Positions 10,701 through 26,869 of a DNA stretch of 32,000 bases are shown piece by piece. The position numbers were made by a program, and so were the translations under genes. The DNA lies in assembly GCA_000025185.1 (NCBI GenBank), contig CP001848.1, forward strand, positions 2,250,001 through 2,282,000, given 5' to 3'. This stretch comes from Pirellula staleyi DSM 6068 (lineage in GTDB: Bacteria; Planctomycetota; Planctomycetia; Pirellulales; Pirellulaceae). Numbering within the stretch: the first letter of the stretch is position 1; each line of letters begins with the position of its first letter. Below the pieces are notes generated by a model that was not told the origin of the DNA, searched no databases, and worked only from the letters and a program-made list of their open reading frames with translations.

Positions 10701-13700
10701 GGTCCGGCCCCGATTCCCAAAGCACCTGTGAGCGAAATGTTGCCATCAAAGCCCGCCGTGTTGATATCAGTGGCGGCAGTTCCCGAAAGGATCGAACCAC
10801 CGGCATTCACCGTGACACTGGCGGCGAAGAGCGTGACGGAACCAAAGTTCACGTCGCCACTGGCCACGATGGTGAAGTTGTCGTCCGACGTTGCGACAAA
10901 ACCGCCCAGCGAGGAAAGATCGACATTTCCCGCAACGGCTTCGAGCGAGATGACACTGCCGATTCCACTCGAGGAGAGAAGGATGAATTGATCGAGGTCG
11001 AGATCGCCTGTCGCTTGCTCGTAGTAAACATCTCCTGTGGCACTGAAGCTGAGTTTGCCACTTGGAGCACTGAACTGAATCGCATTTCCCACTTGTCCGA
11101 GGTTCGTTCCCTCGAGCGTGATGGCAGTGAGCACCGAGGTGGCTTCCACGCTAGGACCATTGCCAGTCCGAAGCACATCCCCTGCGGCATCGCCGGAGAA
11201 TGTCACAACGTTAAGTGGACTCGCGTTGGCAAACGTCAAGTCGCCCGTACCACCAGCGCGGACGATCCAGTTGTCGTTAGCCGTGTTATTGTGAATGCCC
11301 GTTAAGCTGTCGATGGTGAAGTTGCCCGCCGAGGTGCCGAGCTGAATGGTGACTCCTGTACCGGCTGCTGAGAGGGTGGTGATTTGATCGGTGGAGAAGT
11401 CGCCACCGTCAGCGTCGAAGTAGATCCCTCCCACTGAGGCAGAGAGGCTGACCGTGCCGCCATTCAGATCGGCGCTCAGCGGTGTTGTTGAGGCGCCGAT
11501 CGACTCCGCAATCACTGCGAGTCGGGGTACGACTAAGTCGCCAGTCGAAACTTCGATATCGGTTCCAGCACCATCGGATGTGACATCGCCAGCGGCGTAG
11601 AGTTCGACGATCTTGGCTTGCAGCACTTCGGTGCCGGTGAAGCTGATATCCGACGATCCACCTTGTGCTCGCAAGATCAGCGTGTCGCTTCCGACAAGGT
11701 CGGTAAAGGGCGTGGTGTCGTCGACCACGATGTTGCCATTTTCCGTCGAGATCTCGATGACCTGATTGGCGGCAGCAGCTTTCACGGTTCCGAATCGTGA
11801 GAAATTCAGAGCACCGCCAAGGTACAGAAAGTTGATCCCTTGCGTGTCGGCCACCATGCTGATGAGCCCCGGCGAAGCAACGGTTGCTTCAATCGCATCG
11901 ACACTGGTGCCGACACCCAAAGCAGCGGTTAGTACGAGGGCATCGCCAGTTCCCGACGTGACGAAATCGACCCCCACACCGTTACTCAAGATGCTGCCAC
12001 CCGCATTGATGCTGATGGTGCCAGCCGTGATGCTGTGAGTCCCGGTGGCAGTGAAGTTTCCACCACTCACCACCGTCCAGTTGTCATTGCCCGACGACGA
12101 AGTACCGAGGGTGATGTGACTGCTGGCCCCCGTGGTCGTAATGCGAATCGCTTGAGCGGAACCCCCTGCGGTGGAGAACGCTCCCAGTCGCAGCGAAGCA
12201 GCTGACGAAATGTTGATGTCACCAGCTGTGCCGGCCCCGGTCGTCGTGGCCGAGATAGTGCCGGTTCCAATCGAAACCGCGATGCGATTGCCCGAGGTGC
12301 CGATAGCAGCGCCTGATGCGAGTACCACATTGCCGTTGGCGGTGGCGGTGTTGATGTCGTTGGTGGCGGTGCCACTGGTGATCGCTCCGGCGGTGGCCGT
12401 CAGGCTGGCAGAGGCTGTTGTGAGCGAGCTGTTTCCTGAGAATGCAATGTTGCCGGTCGTGCTGCTGATCGTCGACGTTCCGGCCCCAGTGTTGATGTTC
12501 GCCCCGATCGTGATCGTGCCGGTATGAGTGAGTTCGATATCGCCACCGGCTGTCGAGATGGTGGCGGTACTGGAGAACTGCACGCCGGTTGTGCGGAAGT
12601 CGCCACCGTTGGTGGCAATCGCAGCAGCAACAGTCACATTTCCGGCGGTAGCATTCCCGTCGTCATTCACACCACCCGATGCATTGGCATTGAGTACCAC
12701 CGTCAGCTGACCGTTGCTGGCAGTAATGGCGTCGTCGATCAGGATGTCGTTAGCGGCATTCAAAGTGAGCGTGGCATTGTTGCCATTCATGTTCACCGTG
12801 AGTGGCGCATCGAGCGTGATGTTGCCGTCTTGCGTGCCACCTGTGCCGGTGTTGATCGTAACGTTCGTCCCGGCGGCGAGTGCTGCCGTGATGGTGGAAA
12901 CGTTGATCTGTGTGTTGTTGGCAGTCGCTGTGAGCACACCGGCCGTTAGGATCGCAGTGCCAGTGTTATTGATCGTGACGTTGTAGGGATCGAGGAGCCA
13001 AGTCCCTGCGAGACCATTCACAGCGCTCGCGCTTGCGGCTCCACCGATGGCCAAGTAGCGTTTGCCCGATGTTTCAATGAAGCCACCATTGCCACCTTCG
13101 GCACCACCGCGCGCGGCGATGTTGTGCGAGCCAGCAACAATTGCTGTGTCATCGGCCCAAACGATCACCTTACCGCCGTCCCCTGACTGGATCGCTGAGG
13201 CGTTGATAGCTGCATCGGCATCCATGTAGGTGAGGTTGGCATTGCGAACGATAGGGTTGCTGCCAAGATAGTCGCCACCAACCAGAACTTCACCACCACC
13301 ACGAGTGCCAGTGGCATCGATCAGTGCACCCGAGAGGAGCGAGACTTCATTGCCTAGCAGTTTGAGCTTGCCACCCACGCCAGCGTCGCTCTTGTCGGAT
13401 ACATCGATGGTTCCCGAGAACAGTAGCTCACCCTCTTGAGCATCGAGTGTGACGTTGCCTGCAGTTGCAGTGATGCTCGAGCTTGCAGTAGCGGTGAGGG
13501 ATTCTGTGGCCGAAAGCGTAATCGGTGCATCGCTGGCTGAAAGGTTTCCGGAGAGCATCAGCCGCTCGGCCGATGCATCGAGCGCGCCAGTTTCGAGTTG
13601 CATCGAGCCATCGAGATGAAGCTCGCCACGCGAGGCTAGAAGCTCGAGTCGATCGGACAATCGGAGCTGAAAATCAGCAGCGCGAAGCGTCGCTCCCTCT

Positions 13701-14587
13701 TGCTGTGCATCGATCGAAAGCGAGGACTCGGGAGCTTGAAACGACACCGTGCGATTGCCCGATGTCGTTGCGTAAGCGAGTTGCTCGAGTCCCTCACTGG
13801 TGGCGCTGTTGGCAGCCGAGTTCGTACCGTAGTAATTCACCACGCTGGCATCGACAAACACAAACGAGCGCGAATCGCTCGTGAGTCGATCGACGATCGG
13901 TTCGAAGTCATCGAGTTCTAGCTGCGCATTAATCGAGGACGATTCACGCGGTCCCGTTACTGAAATCGAAGTGCTGGTGTCGGAGAAAGTGTAAGCAATG
14001 CTGCTGGTGTGCTGCCCGATCAGCTCGAGCGTATCGATGCCACTTCCGCCTTGGAGTGAAATTTCTTTGGCGAGATTTCCCGCGCCACTGAAGGTCTCCG
14101 CGAGGTCGATCGACACGAAGTCGTTGCCCGCGCCTGTGTTGATCTGAATTTGATCGCCGCTGAAGCTGTCGAGCGAGAGAATCAGCCGATTCGTGCCATC
14201 GCCGATCGCACCTTCAATCGTGGTGCTAAAAATTTGCGTGGGATCGTATAGCTCGATCGTTCCTTGAGCAGCATCGATTCGAACTTGCAGCTGATTGTCG
14301 TGTGCGCCCGATGAGTTGTCCTCGACGACAAGGTTGCCACTGGCGTCGATCGAAGCATAGAGGGACGACGGGGTAGTGCTCGAGGTGGTCGAACTCGTTG
14401 GTGTGCTGCTGGGAGTCGTTTGGTTTTGTGGAGCCAGCGCACCGGCACCAGCTGCGTTGAGTACATAGCGGGGCTCGAGCGTGCCAACTTCCAGCTGGGC
14501 GAGGAGGGCTTCGCGAGCGGTATGCGAGCTAGCGCGACGCTTCCGTCGAGGCAGCAGCCTCGAGAACCAGTCGAGAATTGGTCGCAT
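4769..14587 (-). CDS. Giant (3272 aa) secreted or surface beta-helical repeat protein with an N-terminal LEPR-XLL-type motif and a filamentous-haemagglutinin-like GNGGFIETSG...WLLDP element
   Basis: A single uninterrupted ORF in the track. Composition is Gly/Thr/Ser/Asp/Asn/Ile-rich and Cys-free, typical of beta-helix adhesins. N-terminus reads ...LEVGTLEPRYVLNAAG. The segment GDGGKVIVWADD...ARGGAEGGNGGFIETSGKRYLAIGG...GTWLLDPYNVTI covers residues ~470-540, with GNGGFIETSG at 13064-13093. A C-terminal module, LAPGMGEGQAGQIIVVGNATFGPGTEFVFDI...DYDQLQVFGSLDITGNILSLEGG, lies at 5735-6118. Confidence 0.9.
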   Translation of the reverse strand: MRPILDWFSRLLPRRKRRASSHTAREALLAQLEVGTLEPRYVLNAAGAGALAPQNQTTPSSTPTSSTTSSTTPSSLYASIDASGNLVVEDNSSGAHDNQLQVRIDAAQGTIELYDPTQIFSTTIEGAIGDGTNRLILSLDSFSGDQIQINTGAGNDFVSIDLAETFSGAGNLAKEISLQGGSGIDTLELIGQHTSSIAYTFSDTSTSISVTGPRESSSINAQLELDDFEPIVDRLTSDSRSFVFVDASVVNYYGTNSAANSATSEGLEQLAYATTSGNRTVSFQAPESSLSIDAQQEGATLRAADFQLRLSDRLELLASRGELHLDGSMQLETGALDASAERLMLSGNLSASDAPITLSATESLTATASSSITATAGNVTLDAQEGELLFSGTIDVSDKSDAGVGGKLKLLGNEVSLLSGALIDATGTRGGGEVLVGGDYLGSNPIVRNANLTYMDADAAINASAIQSGDGGKVIVWADDTAIVAGSHNIAARGGAEGGNGGFIETSGKRYLAIGGAASASAVNGLAGTWLLDPYNVTINNTGTAILTAGVLTATANNTQINVSTITAALAAGTNVTINTGTGGTQDGNITLDAPLTVNMNGNNATLTLNAANDILIDDAITASNGQLTVVLNANASGGVNDDGNATAGNVTVAAAIATNGGDFRTTGVQFSSTATISTAGGDIELTHTGTITIGANINTGAGTSTISSTTGNIAFSGNSSLTTASASLTATAGAITSGTATNDINTATANGNVVLASGAAIGTSGNRIAVSIGTGTISATTTGAGTAGDINISSAASLRLGAFSTAGGSAQAIRITTTGASSHITLGTSSSGNDNWTVVSGGNFTATGTHSITAGTISINAGGSILSNGVGVDFVTSGTGDALVLTAALGVGTSVDAIEATVASPGLISMVADTQGINFLYLGGALNFSRFGTVKAAAANQVIEISTENGNIVVDDTTPFTDLVGSDTLILRAQGGSSDISFTGTEVLQAKIVELYAAGDVTSDGAGTDIEVSTGDLVVPRLAVIAESIGASTTPLSADLNGGTVSLSASVGGIYFDADGGDFSTDQITTLSAAGTGVTIQLGTSAGNFTIDSLTGIHNNTANDNWIVRAGGTGDLTFANASPLNVVTFSGDAAGDVLRTGNGPSVEATSVLTAITLEGTNLGQVGNAIQFSAPSGKLSFSATGDVYYEQATGDLDLDQFILLSSSGIGSVISLEAVAGNVDLSSLGGFVATSDDNFTIVASGDVNFGSVTLFAASVTVNAGGSILSGTAATDINTAGFDGNISLTGALGIGAGPADSIIVNAGNGVVDLTTSDLTGDISLQSDGVLNLGTISTVAGEQTVNISVPTSSLSFTSAVTTDDNWVVYASGDIQFVGANHTLTVNTLVMTSDSNITTDGQGTDIAVVGTTGGVLILEANNVGADTLPIAISRLSGTQVSFTALDGDIFLNFVDSSLDFSDLQLSTGLPANRTVSIAAAGQITIDDLTNIDVSTNDDNWLLETTGANADILFAAATPLTVLSLDATATGNIYTTATTVSIDATSFNQAITLTGASVGGNPDAGGLALRLDIEAGAFISVESGSDIGISIVDGDFNVSQLTLFSISAAGSTIYLGIENGILTFDDTTGFVDTTDDNWVIEGSSNLLFTGPTLEAASVKITVDGLIEQSFGLDIDTSAFDGDITLITQLGVGVNAPVRIAAGNGIVRATAATSGGINLASLTNFNVGLMTTNAGAVDNINLRTFGGGDDLRFVESSSTNDNWLLSSQGNIELVDDTFLDGNIFFLFATDDVVSGTHDYDLKSTSALQEIEIIAGSIGSTTNLLVLDQAFTGLYAQATVGDLAIEIVAGDITLSTLDLFSAVGVGVNVYLKTRSGDITIDVDSNTSDIFDDNLTFIAEGAGSDIILDIANPLVAASVNLQAGGKLVTSAANPPIDIDTSGTNGDITIFAASGIGEPGDPLKINPGTGVVSLSTSETDGDIFVRSDTQFNLGQISTGADIQTIEVGTLNGDLIISDPSGSNDDWRLIANGNIIFQGDGSLSANTAFLFANNTIYSDTAGIDIDTSASNGAIFISSAYVGTVNQRLEVNAGTGTYEIDSVFDVYLGFYGGDLFTSQFVGLDTNALPVTIDLLVENGDLIVDSAAGFTGTSTSGNWVLTTNTGFDVVFDNTTLQVGSLVVDSGGSILGGSNPGTDIRTTAGGIDLTAAGDIGESGNSLNIDLPNNFTPITAAAGTNVYLESADSLLVDTITTDVGTGTISVATLNPGSTITINSDINSDDNWILNSASDVIFNPAGTLRAVSVSIVADGNIVGNNGAVDIEVLTAGNNLYLEAQNIGTFGTPIDLILGADTQLEVIATGSSVALNMQSGDFHTSQFATLVLQGGTGNILLTTLDGSLYVDSTAGFDSSTNNDFFLLNAIATDADIVFENNTTLLAAQALLNANRNIVSGAALYDVDTSASQGSITLQAGGMIGAQANEFAVNTGSGLTAGLLFVSTSSVGGDIYLESGDTLNIGTLTTNGAESQFIELGGGDVILSNIFTTNDDWELFGSNIIFNNAAMITARSVQISASNAVTSGTGVVDIDVSAPGGSLIVSAITGTADNPLEVNLGDSDLSLYSTGGDSYVNFHGGDLRGSQILALSVTSEDATIQLTALNGDILLDNLDGFQPELFDMNAHLILRAQSQVQGVMSNIDLDGGTLRAGNVTLEAMGSISGNLGGGVDIQTAPDGIVRLVAIGEVDQNYDPVQGGEIGSALNPMILATSGVEAISTGNQYYSASPTLRLLALDAGNSTIFLQSGTFYLDGFTDSTVLSPGVTFGGDGIVKGDLIAPGIVTLAPGMGEGQAGQIIVVGNATFGPGTEFVFDINSPYQIPGRDYDQLQVFGSLDITGNILSLEGGEALQQTISDITLIDMMDPNSQVIGQFVLGEGSIDIDGKVSIGNFSSNIFYTGGSGNDVVLSNISLVPPIQNTNYKAPSLRFIAFSRDFVPIADNDVQPPQLSPVEPPIIEADVDGVAVRKVQVSLLTPIDDEGNFLEEVVLTLDVEWLKNLSALFRRLPDDRYRLYLILEGGEKRRVMDVVIRDGRPFEPEENRDLEPASKFVAPPPMNEGAVPTMEQDSPTELPPTKATSTSPQDVNEPAAEPLPTGPTLQGPTLNAPTTTPLRDATGPAVSPLERSSLDDYSGSSTQYAYVDDSHAYASDFVASETVRESSLGQSDVFAAADANEIAATPIRFVPATAGIAMVLASAGSDGDWQKAVDGAVIAHSRERLSRRGRLQAKRRPAER
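6119..12091 (-). repeat. Array of about 15 degenerate protein-level modules of ~124-137 aa, each opening with an x-D-D-N-W-like motif, inside the giant gene
   Basis: I counted module starts at residues 833 (GNDNW), 966 (GSDTL variant), 1103 (ANDNW), 1234 (SDDNF), 1359, 1492, 1629 (TDDNW/NDDNW), 1753 (TNDNW), 1883 (FDDNL), 2013 (SNDDW), 2143 (TSGNW), 2269 (SDDNW), 2400 (TNNDF), 2532 (TNDDW) and ~2661 (DMNAH variant). Spacings are 133, 137, 131, 125, 133, 137, 124, 130, 130, 130, 126, 131, 132 and ~129 aa. The residue count closes to 3272 when counted from both ends. Confidence 0.75.
14450..14587 (-). other. LEPR-XLL-type N-terminal region of the giant protein
   Basis: MRPILDWFSRLLPRRKRRASSHTAREALLAQLEVGTLEPRYVLNAAG. 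LEPR plus YVL lies at 14453-14479. By eye it matches the motif that names the NCBIfam 'LEPR-XLL domain', which is found at the N-termini of very large repetitive proteins. There is a basic cluster but no long hydrophobic h-region. Confidence 0.6.
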
Positions 14588-15178
14588 AGCAGGAGGCTCC
14601 CATCCGTAAAAGCAGATCGATAGCGGTGACGGTCACCTGCAGGGGTGAGCCGCGGCCACGCGACATGCGTCAGAGTTTGTGCATTTCAACCCTGCATTAT
14701 CGGGGTGGAGTGGTCGCAGTGTCAAACTCATCCGGAGATGCCGGTCGAGCCGAAAAATCCGCTGCCAAATCCATCTCGCGATAACGTCGCAACGTGGTCG
14801 CCCAACCGTGTTCGCTCGGCTGGCCAGTTCCTTCTAAAAATCCATTCAACCTGGCCGAGATTTTGTCGCCAAAAACTGTCTGTTTTGCCTAGCCTTCCAT
14901 TCTCTATCGGCCTTTGATCGCGGCCTCCCGCAACAAGTTTGACGGTGGCGGGAAGTGGGTATGTCGCGGTGTTCCGGCTGTAACGGTCGTGCCGGTCGAG
15001 TGAGGATTGGCTGCTGTGCCGGTCAATCCGGATAGTCTCGGAAGACTTGAGAGACCGGTTAAAGGAGGTCGACAACACTCGTGCGACACCGTTAAACCCT
15101 TCGATCCTCCCAACTGGAAGTGCCTGCATGCCCACTGCCGAATCGCGCCTTCCAAGAAGCTCCGAATGTGCCGCTAAG
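14588..15178. promoter_or_regulatory. Long divergent intergenic region, presumed to hold promoters and leaders for the giant gene (-) and the proline-rich protein gene (+)
   Basis: About 590 nt lie between the two divergent starts. The only ORFs here look spurious. GGGAG sits 14 nt upstream of the giant-gene ATG. No promoter motifs could be called with confidence. Confidence 0.3.
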
Positions 15179-17320
15179 ATGCGCCGTAAGTCGTTTCTGC
15201 AAAATGGCTTGTGCAGTGCAGCAGCAGCTCTGTTGATGGCGGCTCCGTGGCTGGGATGCATGCGAAGCGATAGCCTCGTCGAACACCCGGGAGGAACCCG
15301 TTTGCCGTCCGAGGTGGCGGCGGCGGTCGATCCTTCAAGCGGTGCACCGCAGCTGGCGATGGGGGAAAAACCGGCAGCTCGCGATGCCTCCGGTAAGCTG
15401 GTGCTGCCTAGTGCGCAGTTCACCCCTCTGGCGACTACCACCAACGCGATTGCCCGTGATTCGTCGGTTCCAGAGGCCGTTTCCCCCGCAGCACCGTGGC
15501 AAGCTAGCGAAGTCGACACTTTGGCAAACGCGCAGCCTCCGCGCCCGTCGATCATCCCCCCTCCACCACTTCCGGCCCCATTTGCCAATAGCTGGGTCGG
15601 AACGCCAGTTGCAACTCAGCCTGCTCCTGAACTTGCGCCGCAGACCCATCCCTCGATGGTTTCGACTGCGGCACCAACTCGTCCAGAGCCTGCGCCAGGC
15701 ACCGACTTAGTTTCCTGGCCTGTCGTCGACCGGCTTCCCGAGGTCACCAACGAGCAACCAGCTGAAGAACCTCTGCCAACGATTCGTATTCGCCCGGCAA
15801 CACCGACGCCCAGCGTCGTGCGAGCCGCGCCCCAGCCAAACATTCCGCAGCCGACGATTTCGCGCCTGCCAGCGACGTTTGAAGTTTTGCCTCCGGTTGA
15901 CGAACCGAATCAGCCGCTGCCTGTTATCGCTTTAGCGCCGCGCATGCCAGTTCCGCGCGACGTAGCGAGCGATCGCCCGGCAGCAGTCACTCCGAAGATT
16001 GAGCGACTTGCGCCTCTCGTGGAAGAGCCAGCACGCGCTCCCTTGCCAGCGGTGCCGCGTCAAAACATTGTGCGTCTTCCCGAGCCTGTAGTTCCAGCCG
16101 CTGCTGTGGAGTCCGACCAGCCGCGCGTCCTGAATGCCTATCGTCCGCCAGAGTTCGAAGGACGTAACCAGCGTGTCATCACACCCGAAAAAGTCGAGAT
16201 GATCGATGCGCCGCAAATCAACCTTTCTGCAGGGCCAGCGGTAGCGAGCACGAATGTTCCCGGAAGCTTGCCTCCGATTGTCCATGCTTCTCCACAACCC
16301 GAGCAAAAGTCGTCACGTCGATCAGCAATCGCCGCCGCCTCCCATACGCGGCTGACTCCGAGGAGCGCAACGCCGCAGGCTGCAGCTTTAGGGTCGATGA
16401 CCCCTGAAGTTCGCTCGGTACTGGTTCGTCCTCAAACGATCAAAACCGATTCGGGCGAAGTGATGCTGACGAGCGAAATGTCGCCACGGTCTGTGAGCGT
16501 GCTCGCTTCACGTGTCAGAATCGCGCCACCACCTGCAGGTGAAGAGCGAGTGCTCGAGATTCATCCCGAAGCACCTTCGGAGCGTGCTCCCGACTACGTA
16601 ACCCCTCAAAATTCCATTCCACCAGAACATCCCGCCGCATCGCCAGAAGCAGAAACCTACGACCCCGAAGGGTATGTGGTGCAAGAGGAACTTTTGCCCC
16701 CTCCAACCTCGGGAACGCCGCAGCCACCACCACGAATTACGATCCAGCCACCAGCCTCGAACAATTCCTCGACCGAAAGCGAACTGCTTCCTCCTGCGTC
16801 AGAGCCAGGCTTGCTCGATCCCGATCAAACAACGCAGGCCGATCCGCCCCAGCGTTTCAAACCGCTATCGTCCCTCACTACGAATATCGCGGTTCCGACC
16901 TATCGCACCGTCACGGGGGACGCGCTGCCGATGCCAGCAGACTATGCCACCGAGTTTTTTGCCAACCAAGGTCCCGATTGGCGATCGGAACGTGCTTCGC
17001 GCTATGGCGACTACGTTGTGAATCCTCAAGGACTCGAGTTCTGCTATCAGCCACTCTACTACGAAGAAGTAAACGTCGAGCGCTACGGCCTCACATTCGG
17101 AGTCGCCCAGCCTGTCGTTTCAGCAGCCCAGTTTTACGGCCGCACCGCTGTGCTCCCATTCATGATGGTCACACATCCACCACGCAAGTGTGCCTGCCAT
17201 CCTCACTGGACATTGCCTGGCTATCGCAGCTGCTGGGAAGTGCCCGACTACATGCCACGTCCCGACGCCGCCGCCGTGGAAGCTGCTTTCGTACTGGGGC
17301 TGATTCTGCTCATTCCGTAA
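15179..17320 (+). CDS. Proline-rich envelope protein with a signal-peptide or lipoprotein-like N-terminus and a conserved Cys-containing C-terminal domain ending in a hydrophobic tail
   Basis: The track ORF begins at a TTG (15047). I prefer the ATG at 15179 because it yields MRRKSFLQNGLCSAAAALLMAAPWLGC: a basic n-region, an h-region, then Cys, although the lipobox is imperfect. The central ~550 aa are rich in Pro, Ala, Glu and Val. The last 121 aa (16955-17317) read FFANQGPDW...FCYQPLYYEEVNVERYGLTFGVAQPVVSAAQFYGRTAVLPFMM...CACHPHWTLPGYRSCWEVPDY...AFVLGLILLIP. From memory this resembles a planctomycete-restricted hypothetical family with a (H/Y)xPLYFE(D/E)xNLERYG motif. I cannot name the family. 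Confidence 0.75.
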   Translation: MRRKSFLQNGLCSAAAALLMAAPWLGCMRSDSLVEHPGGTRLPSEVAAAVDPSSGAPQLAMGEKPAARDASGKLVLPSAQFTPLATTTNAIARDSSVPEAVSPAAPWQASEVDTLANAQPPRPSIIPPPPLPAPFANSWVGTPVATQPAPELAPQTHPSMVSTAAPTRPEPAPGTDLVSWPVVDRLPEVTNEQPAEEPLPTIRIRPATPTPSVVRAAPQPNIPQPTISRLPATFEVLPPVDEPNQPLPVIALAPRMPVPRDVASDRPAAVTPKIERLAPLVEEPARAPLPAVPRQNIVRLPEPVVPAAAVESDQPRVLNAYRPPEFEGRNQRVITPEKVEMIDAPQINLSAGPAVASTNVPGSLPPIVHASPQPEQKSSRRSAIAAASHTRLTPRSATPQAAALGSMTPEVRSVLVRPQTIKTDSGEVMLTSEMSPRSVSVLASRVRIAPPPAGEERVLEIHPEAPSERAPDYVTPQNSIPPEHPAASPEAETYDPEGYVVQEELLPPPTSGTPQPPPRITIQPPASNNSSTESELLPPASEPGLLDPDQTTQADPPQRFKPLSSLTTNIAVPTYRTVTGDALPMPADYATEFFANQGPDWRSERASRYGDYVVNPQGLEFCYQPLYYEEVNVERYGLTFGVAQPVVSAAQFYGRTAVLPFMMVTHPPRKCACHPHWTLPGYRSCWEVPDYMPRPDAAAVEAAFVLGLILLIP

Positions 17321-17379: not shown

Positions 17380-19590
17380 CTAAAGCCCGCGGCTGAGCTG
17401 AAACGTCTTGCTAAACAGACGCCAAAGCCGTCGCGCGATCGTTTCGGAATCAACGCGAATTCGAGCTTTCCCCGTCGCGTAGGGGAGCACACGTAGCGAG
17501 CTCTGCAGCTCGATTCGGACTTGATACTTCGCTTCGCTCGACACTTCGTCGGACTCGAGCAGCGAGTTAGTCATCGCTGATGGTGTCGCACTCTCCGACG
17601 CTTTGGCGATATCGATAATCGTCCCCTCGACGGCGATCGATTCTTCTTGAAACACGATTACCGCCACCGACTGTCCAATGCGCACTTGCTCCAGATCCGA
17701 TTCAGCCAGGACAGCAGTCGCTTCGAGCTTCGTGGGGTCCCCGACTTCGCAAAGCAACGTCCCTTGGTCCAAATAGCTGCCGATGTTCTCGGGGTCGAGT
17801 GGTGTACCGTACCAGGTGGTTAAGGCCAGCTTCGTGACCTCTCGTTTCGCGCGTCCCGGAGCGAGCACGACACCTTCGCGAGGTGAGCGAATCGTGAGGC
17901 GATTGACTAGGTCGCGCAGTTGCTCAGTTCGCTCGCGCATGTCCTGCAGCACTACCGTTTCGGCAGGAATGATGGTCTCCACCGAGTCATCAATCCCGCG
18001 CATCGTCTGCAATGCGTCGAGCTTCTTCTCTTGTGCCCTGGTCTCTGATTCGATCCGTGCAAGATCGAGCGTTAGCGCCGAGTTGTCGAGCTTGGCCAAG
18101 ACGTCACCTTGGCCAATAGTGTCGCCAGCCTGCGCCACCGATCGAAGTTGCCCTGCGCTCGTGACATAGATTGGTGTGGCACCTTGAGGAATCACCAGCA
18201 GTGGCGCATCGACGCGCGATGGGAGCGGCACCATCACGATGGCTCCCACGGCGCCGCAGGCGAAGATCGTCGAGAAAGCGAATCGTAAAAAACTAAATTG
18301 ACGTTGCATGATCGACTCGCGCCATTGCCGAAAAAAGGTCTGAACGACAGGGAGCAGCGTGGCACCCAGTGCCGCGAAGAGCAACAGCCCCACCATCGCC
18401 TCGATCTTCCACGCTCGTCCAAGTGCCGAGAGTATCCAGTATGCCGAGACGAGGACAAAAATGCGATAAATCCCCGAGAATAACGCGTAAAATGCCAGCG
18501 GGGCATCTCGCTCGGTACTCGCCAGAAGAGCTGGAGGAGGCGTAAGTCCAAAGACCTGTTGGGCGAAGATGGTTGCAAAAGCACGCCGCGATCGCTGCTC
18601 GAGATTCGGGATTTCGAGCCAGTCGGAAAGGAGGTAGTAGCCGTCGTAGCGGAGCAAGGGATTGGCATTCACGACCAAAGTTCCGATGGAGCAAATCACC
18701 ATCGCCTGGAGTGATAGAGAGTTAATCACCCCCGGCAGACTGGCCCACCACAGCAAACCAAACAGCGCTGCCAGCACGAGCTCCACATACATCCCCGCTG
18801 CTGCCACAGCCATGCGCTTCCAGCGACTCGCCAGGAGCCAGCTGTCCGACACGTTGCAGTAAAGGCAAGGGGTCAACAGCAATAGTTGCACACCCATCTC
18901 CGGAACGCGTGCGCCCATGCGCATGCAGACAAACGCATGCGCAAGTTCGTGCAAGGTTTTCACGAAGATCAGCACAACCGGCAGGAGCAGCAGATGCTGC
19001 GGCGCTAAATTGGTCGCGGAACTTTCGAGCCTTGCAATGATCGTTGGAAGCTGTGTTAACGCAAGGATGAACACCACGGCGACCAGCGTCAGCATGATCG
19101 CCGCGCATAGCGGCGAGAAGAACCAACTCACTAGCGGCAGCCAGGGGCGCAGCCAAGTCTCGGCATCGATCCCACGAAGCCGGGGCGACAGGAGCGCACT
19201 GGCAAGGCGCGAGATAGGCCACGCCTCATGCTTTTGGCGCTTGGTGGCCAGCACTGCTCCCTGACCAGGGAGTGTTCCCAAGACGAGTCCTTGTTTGTGC
19301 AATTGTTCGAGAAATGCCGTCAGCTGTTTAACCGACAGGATGCTCGGCGCAAATCGATGCGCAAATGCAGCCCGCAGATCGTCGATACTGATTTCGCCAT
19401 CCAGATGCTCGAAGACAAACTGTTCATGCCCCCGAAAATAGAAATAACGCAGCGCGATGGGATCGTGCACGATCAGCCACGACTCACCACCAAACCATTG
19501 TTGACGGCGCACTAAATCGTGGCGCGCGACCAATGGAATCGGTCGCTCGGTGGTGCTGGTGATCGGTTTGGAAGTTTGCGGCTTAGCCAC
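17380..19590 (-). CDS. Tri-domain fusion: PqqD/RRE-like N-terminal domain, polytopic M50 (site-2-protease family) zinc metalloprotease, and C-terminal HlyD-type periplasmic adaptor
   Basis: GTG start lies 2 nt after the upstream stop. Residues ~35-105 (19276-19488) read WLIVHDPIALRYFYFRGHEQFVFEHLDGEISIDDLRAAFAHRF...VKQLTAFLEQLHKQGLV, a PqqD-like pattern. HELAH lies at 18937-18951 in a TM segment (...VLIFVKTLHELAHAFVCMRMG). The second M50 motif is NANPLLRYDGYYLLSD (residues 308-323). There are about 7-8 hydrophobic helices between residues 150 and 455. Residues ~455-736 carry the lipoyl-like, coiled-coil (ARIESETRAQEKKLDALQ) and beta-barrel pattern of membrane fusion proteins. Confidence 0.88.
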   Translation of the reverse strand: MAKPQTSKPITSTTERPIPLVARHDLVRRQQWFGGESWLIVHDPIALRYFYFRGHEQFVFEHLDGEISIDDLRAAFAHRFAPSILSVKQLTAFLEQLHKQGLVLGTLPGQGAVLATKRQKHEAWPISRLASALLSPRLRGIDAETWLRPWLPLVSWFFSPLCAAIMLTLVAVVFILALTQLPTIIARLESSATNLAPQHLLLLPVVLIFVKTLHELAHAFVCMRMGARVPEMGVQLLLLTPCLYCNVSDSWLLASRWKRMAVAAAGMYVELVLAALFGLLWWASLPGVINSLSLQAMVICSIGTLVVNANPLLRYDGYYLLSDWLEIPNLEQRSRRAFATIFAQQVFGLTPPPALLASTERDAPLAFYALFSGIYRIFVLVSAYWILSALGRAWKIEAMVGLLLFAALGATLLPVVQTFFRQWRESIMQRQFSFLRFAFSTIFACGAVGAIVMVPLPSRVDAPLLVIPQGATPIYVTSAGQLRSVAQAGDTIGQGDVLAKLDNSALTLDLARIESETRAQEKKLDALQTMRGIDDSVETIIPAETVVLQDMRERTEQLRDLVNRLTIRSPREGVVLAPGRAKREVTKLALTTWYGTPLDPENIGSYLDQGTLLCEVGDPTKLEATAVLAESDLEQVRIGQSVAVIVFQEESIAVEGTIIDIAKASESATPSAMTNSLLESDEVSSEAKYQVRIELQSSLRVLPYATGKARIRVDSETIARRLWRLFSKTFQLSRGL

Positions 19591-19592
19591 GA

Positions 19593-20528
19593 TCAGGGAA
19601 CTCGAATCGTCATCTGCCCACGATAACCGGGGCGAAGCATTTGGTCGGCATTGTCGATCTCAGCAATCACGCGGACTTCATTGCTCACGGGATTCACTTC
19701 GGGACTAACGAAGACCAAAACACCTTGAAATTGCCGCTTCGGAAGCTCTGTGGCCAGAATGTCAAATTGCACGGGAGTGCCAGCTTTCAAAGCTACGGCA
19801 GCTTTCGCGGGAATGAATCCTTCACAGCGGAGCTTGTCGAGTTGCACGAGTCGAATCAGCTTCTTGCCAGGCTCGATCCACTCCCCTTCGCGACCAGTAA
19901 TGTCGGCAACCACGCCGCTGAAGGGAGCAATCGCCCGTCGCCGGTCGATGGTCCGTTTCGCGAGATCGACCTCTGCTTGTTTGAGCTTGATGTTGAGCAC
20001 GGCCACCGATTGTTCGTGCTTTGCTTTTTCCATGGCGAGTCGCGCCTCATCAGCCGCCAATTGCAATCGATCGAGTTCTTGCTGCGAGATTACTTTTTGG
20101 ATCGCAGCAACACTGGTCTGGCCACGTTTCAGCTCCTCTTCGGCTACGCGGAGCGTCTTCTCTGCCAGACGATAGGCCACATCGGTGTCGGCTGTTCGTG
20201 TCGCGATTTCGAGTTCAATTTCGGCTCGGGTGAGCATCAGCACCACTTCGCGATCGTCGAGGGTCGCCAGGATATCTCCCTTCTCGACTTTCATCCCCTC
20301 CTTCACATTCACGGCCGAAAGGATTCCCGCTTCAGCAGCGGGAACATCCACCTCGCGTACCAGACGCAGTAACCCCGAGACGACCACCGGTTCTGCGGCG
20401 CGTGCAGAGGGGGACTCGAAGGAGAGCGAGAGGAGGCCGATGCCAAGGAATACGAGAAGAGGGGACGCTACTTTTTGTTTCGACATGAGATGTCTCTTCC
20501 TGCGAATTGCTCGGCCAACCTGGGGCAT
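19593..20528 (-). CDS. HlyD-family membrane fusion protein (periplasmic adaptor subunit)
   Basis: N-terminal anchor or signal KQKVASPLLVFLGIGLLSLSF. Lipoyl-type segments GILSAVNVKEGMKVEKGDILATLDD and APFSGVVADI. Long coiled coil (EIELEIATR...LKQAEVDLAKR). An alternative ATG at 20486 (MSKQK...) is preceded by AGGAAGAG and may be the true start. Confidence 0.9.
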   Translation of the reverse strand: MPQVGRAIRRKRHLMSKQKVASPLLVFLGIGLLSLSFESPSARAAEPVVVSGLLRLVREVDVPAAEAGILSAVNVKEGMKVEKGDILATLDDREVVLMLTRAEIELEIATRTADTDVAYRLAEKTLRVAEEELKRGQTSVAAIQKVISQQELDRLQLAADEARLAMEKAKHEQSVAVLNIKLKQAEVDLAKRTIDRRRAIAPFSGVVADITGREGEWIEPGKKLIRLVQLDKLRCEGFIPAKAAVALKAGTPVQFDILATELPKRQFQGVLVFVSPEVNPVSNEVRVIAEIDNADQMLRPGYRGQMTIRVP

Positions 20529-20625: not shown

Positions 20626-22605
20626 CTAGTAGACACACCACGACCGAACAAGCGTAATGAGCTCGTGGAACCAAACATACCCGATGGGGTAGGTGCCACA
20701 CTCGATTTTAGCGCGCACTGTTGCGCCGGGGCGTAGCTCTGGGAGCTTTCCGCTGATCGAGCCAGCGGTGATATGCACAATGCTTTGATTTTGTTCGTCG
20801 CGCGACGTTGCGGGGGCGATTGCTTCGACCACAGCCCGGTGCACCTGGGTGATATCGGTGCCGAGCACAAACGAGACTGCGACCGGTTGTTTGGAATGGG
20901 CCTGAGCGCGAAGCACATACCCCGCGCGACGATCGGGAAGGTCGAGTTCGAGTTGCCAGGGAGATGTGAGGTCGGCGATCGTCATCAGCAGTTCACCGCG
21001 CTTCACGGGACGATCGGCCAGCTGACGTTCGAGGTCGAACGTAACGATCGAGCCGCTGATGGGACTGTTGATTTTGAGTTGCGCGACCTCGGCTTTCAGG
21101 ATCTCCTCTTCGGCCTCGAGACCGATACTAATTTCCTTTAGCTGCTCGATTCTCGCGGCGAGTTCGCTTTTTGAACCAGGGCCCGAGGCAGGGAGATCAT
21201 CCCCTAGTAGTTGTGCCTGCGCCGAGTCGAGGTCTTCTTTCGTTTTTCGTCGTTTACCACCCACTTCTGACAAGCGGATCGCTAGCGTGGGGCTATCGAG
21301 TTCTGCTAACGGCTCCCCTTTACGCACCGACATCCCTTCGCGGCCTGCGAGTCGAATCACCACGCCATCAGCTGGCGCGAAGACATGCTGACGGACCTGC
21401 GGAACAAGCTCGCCACTCGCTTCGACTGTCAGCTCGGCTGGTATCAGCAACAGCGCGGCTGTGATGGCACCCAGGACGATTCCCAGCAAGGCCAATTGTG
21501 CGAGACGTTGTCGCGCATGATCACGCACCTTGCGACGGAGTCGTCCGAGCCATTTGAAGGGGAGCGATTCGTACTCGACCGCTCCTTCAACCGCACCAGC
21601 AACCGTTGCGGCGATGAGCGCTGCTCGTCGGCGATCGTCGATGGATGGCAGGCGCGAGAACCATTCGCAGGCCAAAATTCCGATCGGCCTTGAGGATTCA
21701 TCGTCGGTCGTAAGCGGGAGCATGGCGAGCGAACGAGCATGGGTTTCGTCGACGAGCGCTTCAGCCGCTTCTTCGACCTGCGGCGCGACATCGTCGTTTT
21801 TGTTGTCGCCGTACCAAAGTGTGTCTCCCGACCGGAGCACAAGCCCAGCCAGCTGTTCGAGATGTCTTAATGATTGGCTACGACGGTCGAACGAAGCGGC
21901 GCCGCTGATGGCGATCACTTCAGTGCGATTTCCTCGCGCTAGTAGCAGCGTCATCCGGTCGCAGTGAGCAAGTGCGGGAGCATCGCCGACAATGGTGCTC
22001 GCGACATTCTCGAGAATCAGCGATTCGTGCACACGCCTCGAAAGATCGAGGAGCTGTGCGGCATCGAGTTCTCGCGTCTTTAGCAAACGAAGTTGGCGGT
22101 TCTTTTCGTAGTCCTCGGCGATTTCGCAACCGGTGGTGACGAGCCGGAAATAGCCATCGACCAGTGCTGGCCGCGACTCCGGACGCTGCAAGATTTCGAT
22201 CACTCCGAGCGGTTCGTCGAGTACCACCAGCGGCGCGACGATCAGCAGCCACGGTGTATCGTTCACTTGATTTCGCGTGCTGCTTCCAGGTGGAACGAGC
22301 TGCGGTTCGTGGGAACGCAGGACGTCGACGATGAGCGCGTCGTGCTGGGCTCGCAGCTGCGAGTCGCCAGCGAGTGTTTGTTCGAGTTGCATCTCGAACT
22401 GGCACAGGAGTTGGCCTTCACGCACGGTCCAGACAGCACCACCTACAGCGGCCAGCACACCGATTAACTGTGACAGGAGCTTAGGGTAGAAGGTTTCAGG
22501 TGCAACATCCTCGCGCGCGAGTTGCGTGAGTCCATCGAGCACTTCTTCGATCTCGAGCCAAGCGGCGTCGGAAGGCTCGTGCGGATCGAGGTTGCCGGTC
22601 GTCAT
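20626..22605 (-). CDS. Two cytoplasmic GAF-like domains, one TM helix and a HlyD-type periplasmic adaptor domain
   Basis: The track ORF starts at a TTG (22698). I prefer the ATG at 22605 (MTTGNLDPHEPSD...). GAF-like regions span track residues ~45-200 and ~210-375 (21574-22566), e.g. ...GAVWTVREGQLLCQFE...PLVVLDEPLGVIEILQ and ...CDRMTLLLARGNRTEVIAISG...LAMLPLTTDDESSRPIGILACEW. TM helix LAQLALLGIVLGAITAALLLIP at 21439-21504. The adaptor region includes DGVVIRLAGREGMSVRKGEPLAELD, a short coiled coil and INSPISGSIV. Confidence 0.82.
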   Translation of the reverse strand: MTTGNLDPHEPSDAAWLEIEEVLDGLTQLAREDVAPETFYPKLLSQLIGVLAAVGGAVWTVREGQLLCQFEMQLEQTLAGDSQLRAQHDALIVDVLRSHEPQLVPPGSSTRNQVNDTPWLLIVAPLVVLDEPLGVIEILQRPESRPALVDGYFRLVTTGCEIAEDYEKNRQLRLLKTRELDAAQLLDLSRRVHESLILENVASTIVGDAPALAHCDRMTLLLARGNRTEVIAISGAASFDRRSQSLRHLEQLAGLVLRSGDTLWYGDNKNDDVAPQVEEAAEALVDETHARSLAMLPLTTDDESSRPIGILACEWFSRLPSIDDRRRAALIAATVAGAVEGAVEYESLPFKWLGRLRRKVRDHARQRLAQLALLGIVLGAITAALLLIPAELTVEASGELVPQVRQHVFAPADGVVIRLAGREGMSVRKGEPLAELDSPTLAIRLSEVGGKRRKTKEDLDSAQAQLLGDDLPASGPGSKSELAARIEQLKEISIGLEAEEEILKAEVAQLKINSPISGSIVTFDLERQLADRPVKRGELLMTIADLTSPWQLELDLPDRRAGYVLRAQAHSKQPVAVSFVLGTDITQVHRAVVEAIAPATSRDEQNQSIVHITAGSISGKLPELRPGATVRAKIECGTYPIGYVWFHELITLVRSWCVY

Positions 22606-22737
22606 GGTTAGCGGCAATTTCGATCGAGGTGATGTGCGGGAAGAATCACGGGCCACGAGGAGCCAAGACTGTGCTCGTGGCAAGCTCAATCGTAGCAAGA
22701 ATCGCTCGAATGGAGCAAGGAATAGATCGAAAGCAAA

Positions 22738-25700
22738 CTACGGTGCTGGCGGCAGGTACTGAAACGCCGGTGCTGTCTGCTGCATCGCTGGGGCTGGCAT
22801 CGGAGGTCCTGAGACCCCCGAAGTTCCTGGGGCAAACCAAGTTTGTTCGATCAGTCGCGACGAAGGGCCTTGCTGCATCGACGTGGGAATCGGCTGAGCC
22901 GTCGGTCCCTGCATGCTCGACATGTTCAGCGGTGCTGCTGAGCTCGGACGTCGCAAGCCTTCGAGCGTCGGCTGACGAGGTGCGGCGGGTGGCGCCGCTG
23001 GCTGCTGATACTGGGGTTGCTGATACTGCGGCTGTACCGGTGCATACTGCGTCGGGGGATTCTGTTGCTGGTATTGTGGCTGCGCTGGAACGTTGTAGTT
23101 GGGCTGCATCGAAGGCAGCGGCAACGAGGGCTCGTTGGTCGTAAATCCAAACTGCGGCTGAACGGTGGCCTGAGGTGGTGCAGCCGTTTGTGGCTGGACA
23201 GGGGGAGCCGTGGTGAAAGGACGAACAGCCCCTTGTGGCAACTGCTGCTGCATCGACGGTTGATACTGGGGTTGCTGATACTGTTCGTAGCCGCCCGGCG
23301 GAAGCGAATTGAACTGCGATTGGTTCGACGGTGGAGCCAGCGGCAACGACGAATTGATCGCGGGAGTAGACGGCGTCGCAGGAGCTGGCGGCAGCAGATT
23401 CATCGAGGCGGCCGAACTTGCGCGACGTTGTCCTTCGAGTTGCGGAACGCGAGGCTGTGCGACCTGTGGCCGTGGACCTTGCGATGGCATCGTTTCGTAT
23501 GGAACATTGTTTGGCGAATTGCTCGAGGCGCTGAACTGCGGAGCGACTGCTGCGTTCGATGGTCGACGTCGCGACGAAACACTCGCTGGAGGCTGCTGTC
23601 CAGTCGGCATAGCTGCGGCACTCGTAGACCGCGAACCTGGGAGTGGCAACGAGCTTTCGCTTTCGAGCTGCTGTGGCATAACAGGTTGCTGCACCACCGG
23701 CTGTTGGAGGTTTGGTTGCTGGAAGCTCGGTTGCTGTACGCGTGGCTGCTGCGGCGCTGCGATGGTCGGCGGACTCACAGCAGCAGGAGCATTGCGAGGA
23801 GGCATCAGGTTCATCGATGCGGCACCGCTCGGACGACGGACGTTCCCCATAGCAGGCTGCCTTGCGACACCACCATCGGGCGAAGCAAAGGTAGGTGGAA
23901 CATGGTTGTTGAGCGAGTTCTCATAGGCACGATCTCCCGCTGGAATCGAATCTGCGGGCAGCTCCAGCGAAGGTCCAACCGGCTCGGGCCGGCGAGCTGG
24001 TGTGGGAGTCGTGGCAACTGGTCGCTGCGGTGCTGCGGGTGCAAGCTTCATCGATGCGGCGCCACTCGGACGACGGACATTCCCGATCGCAGGTGCACGA
24101 CCAGGAAGCGATGGCGCTGTGCCTGGCGTGGCCTGCGGATATTCCGTGAACTCAGGATTGTTTTCAGGGAAGTTGAACTCGGGTTCACCAGCTGCACTGG
24201 GGCGTGGCGAACGAGCTGGCGTGGGCGATCCGGCGGTGTTGTTGCTGGCGGCACGTGGCGATGGTGGAAGCAAATTCATCACCGCTGCACCACTTGGGCG
24301 GCGGATGCTTCCTGCATTAGCCGTCCGTGGCTGCTCGGTCATAGTTGGTGCCGATGCTGGCGTTTTGGCAGGCGTAGGCTCGGCATACAGCTTCGAGGGA
24401 TCGGCATAGACAGGATTGCCTACCATGTCCGGACCTTCGGGATCGGTGTTCACAATGTTCGGCAACGTTCCGCCGGGTAGTGGTAGACTCTCTTGCGGTG
24501 TCATCACTGTCTGCGGAACATACTCAGGCTCGGCCGGAACGATCGTCTCTTCGGCGACATCAGCCGGTGGGGTCGGTGGACCGAACATCGGTGGCGCTGC
24601 CAAATCTTGCGGCGATGCTGCATCGTTGGTTGGCGATGGCTCTAGCTCGGCAAAATCGGGCGACGGAGTGGGAATCGATGGATCGCTGGGGGCTGTTTCT
24701 GTCGGTTGTGGCGGACGCATTTCGGTAGGCGACAAATCGGCAGGTGGCAAGCTTTCCGCCATATGCACGTGGCTGTACTCGAGCAGCGTTCCCTTCTCGT
24801 AGTGGATGTTCTTGATTGCAATCGTATGTTCAACCAAAGCGCGATAGTACTGAATGTCGGCATCGGCCAAGCGACGTTCGGCATCCAGCAACTGATCGAG
24901 ATTGACGGGCAGGTCTTTCGAGAGCTTGTCGCGCAGGATATCAACTTGGCGCTGGGCAGCAGAGCGACGATTGAAGCTGGTGTTCATTACTTGATACGAG
25001 CGAGCCAGATCGGCCATCGCATTGCTCAAATCGTGAACCACCTGACGTTCCTGTTCGCAAAGCACGGCTTTCTCGCGAGCCAGCAACAGCTGAGCATTTC
25101 GGACGGCAGCATAGCCACGTCGGAAACCAATTGGCATGGTCAGTTCGGCCCCCACTTGCCATTCGGCGAAATCGCCAATGAACAAGTTGCGAATCGAACT
25201 GTTGCCAAAGTAGCCCTGTGGATCTTGCGGATCGAACAGCAGGTCTTCATCACCCAGCAGTCCATGCCCCAGACCACGCCAGCGATAGCGGGTGGTGGCA
25301 TCGAGTCGTGGTAGCAAAAAGTTGCGCGACGCAATCAGCTCGAGCTCGCGACGTTTGATCGCTAGTCGCTGACGATGCAGTTCTGGACGACGACAAATGG
25401 CATCATTGGTGACGCCACTCCAGTCGAACGAAATGCGAGCGAGCGTGGGCTCGTCACCAGGGCGAATCATGCGACCATCGGTGATCGGCAAACCGCAGGC
25501 CAGACGCAAACGACGTTCGCAAACCAGCACACCACCAATGCCGCGGAAACTTCCACCAGCCGTGCCGTTGTTCGTGGTGGTGCTATCTTGCAAACGGCCA
25601 CTCAAGGCATTTTGTACATCTTCTTCAAAACGATAATACTGCTCGCGAGCTTGCGCTTCACGTTCGGCTGTTCCACCCGGCTGACCACCTTGATACATAA

Positions 25701-26595: not shown

Positions 26596-26869
26596 GTTGG
26601 TGTGGTAGTTTCTGCTTGGGGGGCGCGCAGGAACGTGACTGAGCGGAACTCGTCGTCCCCTTGATCGGCATGCAGAAGTGAAGATCGCGCGTCAAAATCG
26701 CGCTAATTGGCAAAAATCATGCAATCCGCAGGGTTGGTTTAATCGGCACTGTCTGCTCATCTTGTCTATTTTGGTGTTGTTGGCTGTCTAAATTATGCAG
26801 GTTGCCTAGACCGCTCTCTGCATCGTTGCATGTGCAAGTCTGTAAGGTTTTTTCGCAAGGAATTTTGAC
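26596..26869. promoter_or_regulatory. Divergent intergenic region, visibly more AT-rich, presumed to hold promoters for the OMF operon (-) and the TPR-methyltransferase gene (+)
   Basis: 274 nt lie between divergent starts. AT-rich stretches such as ttgtctattttggtgttgttggctgtctaaattatgc are present. There are no credible ORFs and no confidently identifiable -35/-10 elements. Confidence 0.35.

Follow-up and report, generated by a model that had tools for sequence, protein, structure and literature searches.

What does an RRE (the recognition element of pathways for RiPPs, ribosomally synthesised and post-translationally modified peptides) recognize in a protein that also contains an intramembrane protease and a periplasmic adaptor, when no gene for a precursor peptide is found beside it? 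The question is raised by a gene for a 736-aa fusion protein of Pirellula staleyi DSM 6068, located in a stretch of 32,000 nucleotides of contig CP001848.1 (assembly GCA_000025185.1, positions 2,250,001 to 2,282,000 of the forward strand); we refer to this whole stretch as the window and count positions from its first letter. A description of the window made from the sequence alone (hereafter the sequence-only reading) had assigned to the protein a PqqD-type RRE, an M50 protease and a HlyD-type adaptor domain. Our analysis shows that a single polypeptide indeed combines a cytoplasmic RRE fold, an M50 domain predicted to be catalytically intact, and a periplasmic adaptor. Its gene ends a conserved three-gene cassette, and a giant protein with a conserved N-terminal leader is encoded nearby. 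The explanation that we favor, tentatively and with rather less than even confidence, is that this RRE-M50-adaptor module processes or exports exoproteins that bear such leaders.

The N-terminal domain of the window protein scores 15.7 bits (E=0.019) against the Pfam family PqqD (PF05402), i.e. below the gathering cut-off of 23.4. We assembled 56 full-length homologs, 32-63% identical to the window protein, and 19 of them match PF05402 at E<=0.01, the best at 1.5e-6; one homolog carries the automatic annotation "PqqD family peptide modification chaperone". When 31 N-terminal domains were combined into a profile, its top sequence match in the PDB was PqqD of Xanthomonas (3g2b), over 73 residues and with E=0.017. 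The AlphaFold model of residues 1-125, built on the alignment of the same 31 domains (predicted local distance difference test score, pLDDT, 87.3), consists of three main strands and, after them, three helices; a short additional strand lies N-terminally, at residues 20-22. When this model was compared with the PDB using Foldseek, the six best matches were all lasso-peptide RRE proteins with bound leader peptides (TbiB1, 5v1v/5v1u, and the B1 protein 6jx3; probability 1.00, target-normalised template-modeling score 0.69-0.75, root-mean-square deviation 2.9-4.3 A); among the matches listed, nearly all those below the top six have template-modeling scores of about 0.3 or less and low probability. 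Because the Pfam matches of the homologs, the profile match, the predicted fold and the lasso RRE matches agree, the N-terminal domain is, as modeled, an RRE despite its sub-threshold Pfam score.

The region between the RRE and the first membrane segment is basic, with runs such as RRRERRRKE in homologs. Residues 12-26 are also conserved (RPLxLRxRPDL in homologs). We considered this segment as an autoinhibitory pseudo-leader and set the idea aside: the predicted strand 20-22 directly precedes beta1, so that the segment most likely pairs with the edge of the sheet opposite the leader-binding cleft.

The membrane part of the protein matches Peptidase_M50 (PF02163) with 31.1 bits against a cut-off of 27.2. 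Residues H214, E215, H218, N308, N310, P311 and D316 are invariant in 56 out of 56 homologs, and the persistence of the zinc ligands and of the NxxPxxxxDG motif at such divergence indicates that the protease is under selection for catalysis. The nearest curated protease families in NCBIfam are RiPP leader peptidases, namely daptide_HExxH (NF041824; E=1.3e-40, 139.8 bits over profile positions 77-375, against an equivalog cut-off of 300) and YydH/LiaK (NF058609; E=8e-12, 45.3 bits, against an equivalog cut-off of 225). A signature of the family, TPCLYCNVSD, forms a beta-hairpin with two cysteines after the HExxH helix; P241 and Y244 are invariant and C242 is nearly invariant among the homologs. 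This hairpin could be a structural or second metal site, or the strand on which the protease docks its substrate.

The full-length AlphaFold model of the fusion protein (pLDDT 86.8) and a hydropathy scan agree on seven membrane segments, and the distribution of charges places the N-terminus inside and the C-terminus outside. With the N-terminus inside, the HExxH helix runs from the outside to the inside, and in this predicted topology the RRE and both zinc-ligand motifs are found at the cytoplasmic face, close to which the zinc site lies in other site-2 proteases as well. Residues 455-736 follow the seventh segment and are thus predicted to form a periplasmic adaptor. They match HlyD_3 (35.3 bits against a cut-off of 22.2); in Foldseek comparisons they match ZneB, MacA, EmrA, AcrA and MexA with E-values of about 1e-12, and the helices of the adaptor hairpin span residues 504-529 and 537-563 in the model. 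The annotations of homologs mirror this composition: some are named "efflux transporter periplasmic adaptor", and the name given by JGI derives from EpeP/YydH. All three domain calls of the sequence-only reading were thus borne out by Pfam, the homologs, AlphaFold and Foldseek, including the intact active site, with HELAH exactly where that reading had put it and NANPLLRYDG present as quoted there. It had also named two checks in advance, a structural comparison of the N-terminal domain and a prediction of topology. Both came out as it anticipated, the former with lasso RRE proteins on top and the latter, from hydropathy, charge and the model, with a periplasmic adaptor and with the RRE and the protease site facing the cytoplasm.

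The fusion gene starts with GTG, 4 nt past the stop codon of the upstream gene for a 311-aa adaptor, and given this short gap the two genes are probably translationally coupled. The three genes of the cassette, joined in the window by a gene for a TolC-like protein, are predicted to be co-transcribed. We compared the best 80 Planctomycetota loci, together with L081, the orthologous locus (63% identity), and L082; several of the counts given below refer to 81 loci. The order GAF-adaptor, adaptor, RRE-M50-adaptor is kept in nearly all of the 80 loci that have enough upstream flank, as well as in L081 and L082. The TolC-like gene adjoins the cassette only in the closest loci, where it lies on the divergent strand, and is co-directional in L081. 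Beyond the cassette the neighborhood is clade-specific and uninformative (a MOSC protein, a DUF748 protein, membrane proteins).

The sequence-only reading had overstated the rarity of this architecture. A word-indexed search yielded 2179 relatives among 8000 candidates, nearly all of them full-length and 720-750 aa long; those with a named source come from Pirellulales and other planctomycetes. An exhaustive search of representatives clustered at 50% identity retrieved 12,005 proteins at E<=1e-3, of which 3465 reach E<=1e-30. Relatives are encoded in at least 600 species-level genomes, and the best 80 are all from Planctomycetota, including metagenome-assembled genomes labelled Kuenenia and Phycisphaera. 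Across the phylum the family is almost universal, and its members occur several to a genome. Moreover, the cassette was described as early as 2015: a study in PLoS One linked GAF-HlyD, Peptidase_M50-HlyD and HlyD/biotin-lipoyl proteins, sometimes with OEP, to secondary SecA_DEAD proteins in Planctomycetes, Verrucomicrobia, Proteobacteria, Nitrospirae and Chlorobi, and proposed a type-I-like role in secretion, in which the M50 protein would be the membrane component (PMC4452313). In the window the three genes of this GAF/M50/HlyD module are adjacent and on one strand, and the cassette belongs to it. The passages of the article on the module name no substrate, and a text search for PqqD together with HlyD did not return the article, so that it does not mention PqqD. 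Every pairwise combination of the domains of the fusion is therefore already known, and the triple RRE-M50-adaptor fusion within the cassette is not discussed as such in the literature searched. The papers on polymorphic toxins and on giant genes that we examined do not mention the module, and "M50" in a review of tripartite pumps proved to be a residue number, not the protease.

The SecA_DEAD gene that accompanies the module according to the 2015 study is missing from the window. Among the 81 loci, a SecA-like gene abuts the fusion gene only in L050 (positions 628-3111 of that locus; SecA_DEAD, preprotein cross-linking and SecA P-loop domains) and in L079 (6686-7650). The gene in L050, taken together with the secondary-SecA link reported in 2015, argues for polypeptide clients.

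One of the closest characterized systems is that of the daptides, a RiPP class discovered with intramembrane site-2 proteases bearing an N-terminal RRE as the bait (Ren et al. 2023, PMC10028931). Its MpaP is an RRE-dependent intramembrane leader peptidase, and the corresponding leader carries the short acidic/hydrophobic motif ELExMEAP, which depends on Leu(-7) and Met(-4) (PMC10028931). The leaders found near the cassette (see below) resemble this motif in a hydrophobic-Glu-x-hydrophobic-Glu pattern, a likeness and no more. The window fusion shares with MpaP the N-terminal RRE and the intramembrane M50 domain, but its RRE is not aligned to the first 76 positions of the daptide model, and it has an extra C-terminal periplasmic adaptor; its host is a diderm planctomycete, whereas the hosts of MpaP are Actinomycetota or Bacillota. 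None of the genes that accompany MpaP in daptide loci (for precursors ending in Thr, an aminotransferase, a decarboxylase, a methyltransferase and an ABC, ATP-binding cassette, transporter) is found in the window, and with a score far below the equivalog cut-off the fusion protein is not assigned to this family. M50 proteases act in the pearlin and epipeptide pathways too, and EpeP is thought both to cleave and to export its peptide (PMC10885120). The window fusion resembles EpeP/YydH in being a membrane M50 protein, and differs from it in that the window has neither a radical-SAM (S-adenosylmethionine) epimerase nor a precursor, in that EpeP itself has no adaptor domain, and in that the NF058609 score stays below the equivalog cut-off. 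A third point of comparison is offered by peptidase-containing ABC exporters such as the colicin V system CvaAB-TolC, in which an N-terminal leader is cut at the inner membrane and the cargo leaves through an adaptor/TolC duct; a C39 cysteine peptidase serves for recognition and cleavage there, and an ABC ATPase drives export. In the window system the RRE and the metalloprotease would take the place of C39, and no ATPase is encoded in the window.

The search for a conventional substrate of the RRE gave a uniformly negative result. The intergenic regions listed by the sequence-only reading contain few short open reading frames (ORFs), none of which is conserved at the protein level in the orthologous locus L081. 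When 1960 unmasked ORFs of 20-120 aa from 81 loci were clustered, no conserved small ORF was found near the cassette, and only infA and out-of-frame artefacts recurred; likewise, no RiPP tailoring enzyme or transporter recurs around the cassette in these loci. The statement that no precursor gene lies nearby therefore stands, in the window as in the 81 loci. Because no small ORF or tailoring enzyme is conserved and an ATPase occurs in only two of the 81 loci, a classical RiPP cluster is unlikely. The RiPP framing implied by the sequence-only reading was thus too narrow, and RRE-site-2 protease fusions were in any case known from the daptides (PMC10028931). By confining itself to small intergenic ORFs, that reading also missed a plausible ligand of quite different size.

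This candidate is a protein of 3272 aa, encoded on the same strand as the fusion gene, 2.8 kb downstream of it and past one convergent gene. It has an adhesin-like composition, no Pfam domain and no hydrophobic segment anywhere, and begins with MRPILDWFSRLLPRRKRRASSHTAREALLAQLEVGTLEPRYVLNAAG. Homologs occupy the same position in L018, L022, L028, L045 and L081. In the 63% orthologue the segment ALLAQLEVxTLEPRYVLNAAG is nearly identical, and the Ser/Thr linker that follows it diverges. In an alignment of ten leaders L32, E38, L37, R40, V42 and L43 are invariant. The leaders of the window giant and of the proteins in L004, L008, L018, L022, L028, L029, L048 and L081 show a second element ahead of the LExR core, an aromatic/amphipathic (D/N)W(L/F)xxhL followed by a cluster of Arg and Lys; with this second conserved element the signal looks bipartite and 45-60 residues long.

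To see how such leaders are distributed, all frames of all loci (1.23 Mb) were searched with a regular expression (a basic stretch and L-x-x-L-E-x-R-x-[VLA]-L), and then with a hidden Markov model built from the matches. Fifteen large proteins emerged as credible bearers of a non-hydrophobic N-terminal leader; every one is encoded within the first 5 kb downstream of the fusion gene, and 14 share its strand. No leader-bearing protein reaches that score in the 551 kb upstream. The 5-kb downstream zone makes up 23% of the sequence, and the downstream flank reaches 5 kb or more in 46 loci. Among the weaker matches, L008 contributes a divergent giant and L029 a protein that lies upstream, and Calx-beta/leishmanolysin-like proteins of 500 aa, encoded convergently, occur in L025, L036 and L040. 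The leader-bearing giants fall into two families, with single cases in L001, L008, L029 and L049. Since the two families have no similarity outside the leader, the association is with the leader and not with one protein family. The fusion gene and the giant remain syntenic even where the fusion protein has diverged to about 33% identity. We propose, with less than even confidence, that the leader of the giant protein is the ligand of the RRE.

The leaders next to the cassette recall a signal known from the same phylum. PF07595 is a planctomycete N-terminal export signal described by Studholme et al. in 2004, as cited in PMC8567305, where 52 genes of Tuwongella immobilis are reported to have a related motif, several of their products being found only in the SDS (sodium dodecyl sulfate; outer-membrane) fraction. 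The literature searched seldom mentions this signal and names no machinery that handles it. The PF07595 motif, RRLxxExLExRxLLA at the N-terminus, has in common with the cassette-adjoining leaders the LExR..L core and the basic N-terminal stretch, and canonical members are found among the neighbors of the cassette in L049 (E=1.5e-4) and L054 (E=0.13). The window giant and most group-A leaders are, in contrast, not detected by PF07595 and differ from it in the extra (D/N)W(L/F)xxhL element and in VL[NS] after the arginine. As the window giant and most of its relatives do not match the family, we call them variants, and not members, of the PF07595 signal; the relationship would rest on the common LExR..L core. 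That the cassette is linked with the planctomycete export signal appears possible but somewhat doubtful. Still more doubtful, though worth stating, is the stronger claim that the cassette is the machinery for PF07595 and its variants, and thus a new leader-dependent secretion route for exoproteins that are often giant. The RRE would then pick out full-length exoproteins in the cytoplasm, the metalloprotease would take off their leader, and the three adaptors with TolC, helped in some lineages by a SecA-like motor, would carry them through the envelope.

These observations can be reconciled in the following scheme. The cytoplasmic RRE would capture a short N-terminal leader, which the M50 site, facing the same compartment, would then cut off. 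The three adaptor domains of the cassette, two of which would sit on proteins with cytoplasmic sensor or recognition domains, would couple the recognition and cleavage of the leader to a TolC-like channel in the outer membrane, and the GAF domains may gate the process. Judging from the gene neighborhood, the clients would most likely be exoproteins with a non-hydrophobic leader that contains a basic stretch and LxxLExRxVL, not small RiPP precursors. In view of L050, L079 and the 2015 study, a SecA-like protein whose gene lies elsewhere in the genome would be the obvious candidate for a motor. With the same tentative, less than even confidence as for the scheme as a whole, we regard the fusion protein as the core, in the inner membrane, of a module that spans the envelope and is conserved in planctomycetes. 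The sequence-only reading had proposed that one polypeptide combines recognition, cleavage and hand-over to an exit duct; this remains the natural reading of its anatomy, and the part that does not stand is export, which a window without an ATPase or transporter leaves unexplained.

Several observations weigh against this scheme. We know of no site-2 protease that translocates polypeptides, and the window encodes no ABC, RND (resistance-nodulation-division) or MFS (major facilitator superfamily) transporter and no Walker-A motif in any ORF of at least 100 aa, so that adaptors and an OEP protein are present without the energised inner-membrane transporter of type I secretion systems and tripartite pumps. 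With the convergent gene lying between it and the cassette, the giant gene does not belong to the same operon. The association with leader-bearing genes holds in only about one third of the loci with adequate flank, and most cases come from two syntenic clades, which reduces the truly independent events from fifteen to roughly six; formal p-values overstate the association, as within a clade the giant is inherited along with the cassette. PF07595 and the rest of Pfam match the 3272-aa protein neither as a whole nor in its first 90 residues, and the module is reported from other phyla (PMC4452313) in which a PF07595-type signal is undescribed. Finally, a 4.3-kb metagenome contig (L083) carries a gene with an L004-type leader and no cassette within 3.9 kb upstream, so that adjacency of leader and cassette is not obligatory. 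The leader gene of L083 (MRIAAWLQGMLRTRR...LFVRQLEDRRVLNG) is preceded by genes for a large membrane protein and a methyltransferase. A profile of the ten leaders, run against a large protein collection, found only three N-terminal fragments, one of which is that on L083.

Three other explanations must be weighed against the export of leader-bearing exoproteins. The cassette could mature and export small peptides (RiPP-like products, unmodified bacteriocins or signal peptides) whose precursor genes are unlinked, the RRE binding the leader, the M50 domain cleaving it and the adaptor/TolC duct serving as the exit; this is the direction in which the sequence-only reading pointed. This would agree with an RRE fold typical of RiPP pathways, with RiPP leader peptidases as the nearest curated protease models and with the dual role attributed to EpeP/YydH (PMC10885120), and, as a small peptide needs less energy for export than a giant protein, it would also fit a window without an ATPase. 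We nevertheless regard it as unlikely, because neither a conserved small ORF, in the 81 loci or in the intergenic regions of the window, nor conserved tailoring enzymes are found near the cassette, because a multi-copy family that spans a phylum is unlike sporadic secondary-metabolite clusters, and because the positional association of the leader-bearing giants would be left unexplained.

A second alternative is regulated intramembrane proteolysis or envelope surveillance, in which the RRE and GAF domains would be regulatory or assembly modules that bind the cytoplasmic tail of a partner or a small ligand, the M50 domain would cleave a membrane protein or leftover signal peptides, the adaptors would only tether the protease to an envelope-spanning complex, and the giants would be bystanders. 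Classical site-2 proteases do cleave membrane-embedded segments in signaling pathways, and their established role there, the regulatory flavor of GAF domains, the basic cytoplasmic N-termini of the partner adaptors, and the roughly two thirds of loci without a leader-bearing neighbor all speak for such a function. It is unlikely in our view, since neither an anti-sigma or sigma factor nor any other obvious substrate of such proteolysis recurs around the cassette, three adaptor domains and a TolC-like gene beside them point to a conduit, the protease resembles leader peptidases more closely than the RseP or SpoIVFB types, and the bias of leader-bearing genes in strand and position is hard to put down to chance. 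A tripartite efflux pump for small molecules, with the M50 domain as a mere non-proteolytic membrane scaffold, would account for the resemblance of the adaptor domains to those of drug and metal efflux pumps and for the annotation of homologs as efflux adaptors. It is very improbable: the zinc ligands and NxxPxxxxDG are invariant across 56 divergent homologs, the window has no gene for an RND, ABC or MFS pump, and a peptide-binding RRE would be purposeless in such a pump.

The locus bears on two wider matters. RRE domains serve as beacons for the mining of genomes for RiPPs, and thousands of RRE-protease-adaptor fusions without a nearby precursor would represent either a large blind spot of such mining or the recruitment of the RRE for protein secretion. 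Planctomycetes, in turn, have dozens of surface proteins per genome with the N-terminal signal first noted in 2004, and a link between this signal and the cassette, if true, would give a function to a cassette described in 2015 and present in most genomes of the phylum.

Table 1. Features of the cassette and its surroundings, with positions counted from the first letter of the window
Feature	Positions	Strand	Basis
RRE-M50-adaptor fusion gene, 736 aa, final gene of the cassette	17380..19590	minus	ORF call, Pfam, NCBIfam, homologs
PqqD/RRE-fold domain, cytoplasmic, residues about 20-105, followed by basic linker	19276..19533	minus	Pfam, profile, AlphaFold, Foldseek
M50/site-2-protease membrane domain, residues 146-454, seven hydrophobic segments	18229..19155	minus	Pfam, NCBIfam, conservation, topology
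HELAH, residues 214-218	18937-18951	minus	
NANPLLRYDG, residues 308-317	18640-18669	minus	
TPCLYCNVSD hairpin	18844-18873	minus	
Periplasmic adaptor (HlyD/MFP) domain, residues 455-736, alpha-hairpin 504-563	17383..18228	minus	Pfam, AlphaFold, Foldseek
3272-aa Gly/Thr/Ala/Ser/Asp-rich protein, candidate client	4769..14587	minus	composition, leader, synteny
Candidate leader of the 3272-aa protein, residues 1-46, MRPILDWFSRLLPRRKRRASSHTAREALLAQLEVGTLEPRYVLNAA	14450..14587	minus	motif scan, alignment
Leader core LEPRYVLNA	14453-14479	minus	
311-aa signal-anchored periplasmic adaptor, RND_mfp type, middle gene of the cassette	19593..20528	minus	Pfam, NCBIfam
GAF-transmembrane-adaptor protein, first gene of the cassette	20626..22698	minus	Pfam, synteny
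TolC-like outer-membrane factor	22738..26595	minus	OEP domain residues 1-620, lipoprotein-like N-terminus
Convergent gene of no matched family	15047..17320	plus	no Pfam/NCBIfam match; conserved position

Among the remaining genes, the convergent one between the fusion gene and the giant is kept in that position in L004, L022, L031, L045, L048 and L081. In its product, an N-terminus resembling a signal peptide is followed by a long Pro-rich body and by a conserved C-terminal stretch of ~150 aa whose tail end is hydrophobic; the protein may be an accessory part of the system. In the first gene of the cassette the true start is likely the ATG at 22605, the GAF domain is encoded at 21595-22014, and a membrane segment begins at residue 399 of the protein. 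The TolC-like protein ends in a 666-aa Pro/Ala/Gln-rich tail (22741-24735, minus strand; 21.5% Pro), in which we found six copies of an RRPSGAAsMNL-like motif (24274-24303, 24046-24075, 23809-23838, 23536-23568, 23398-23427 and 22924-22953).

Upstream of the TolC-like gene, at about 26634-26726, a non-coding block is 78% identical to the corresponding position in L081, against only about 60% identity for the flanking proteins. GATTTT repeats and a GGGGA that resembles a ribosome-binding site occur in the block, which is probably a promoter, an operator or a 5' untranslated region; a scan of the window against Rfam matched no RNA family. Further along, a 592-aa ORF on the plus strand (28376-30154) fuses VipA (TssB) and VipB (TssC) type VI sheath domains, with no further type VI secretion genes seen in the window. 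In L081, too, this fusion lies beside a gene for TPR repeats fused to a class I SAM-dependent methyltransferase, which in the window is located at 26870-28228 on the plus strand, divergent from the TolC-like gene, and occupies the same position in L081.

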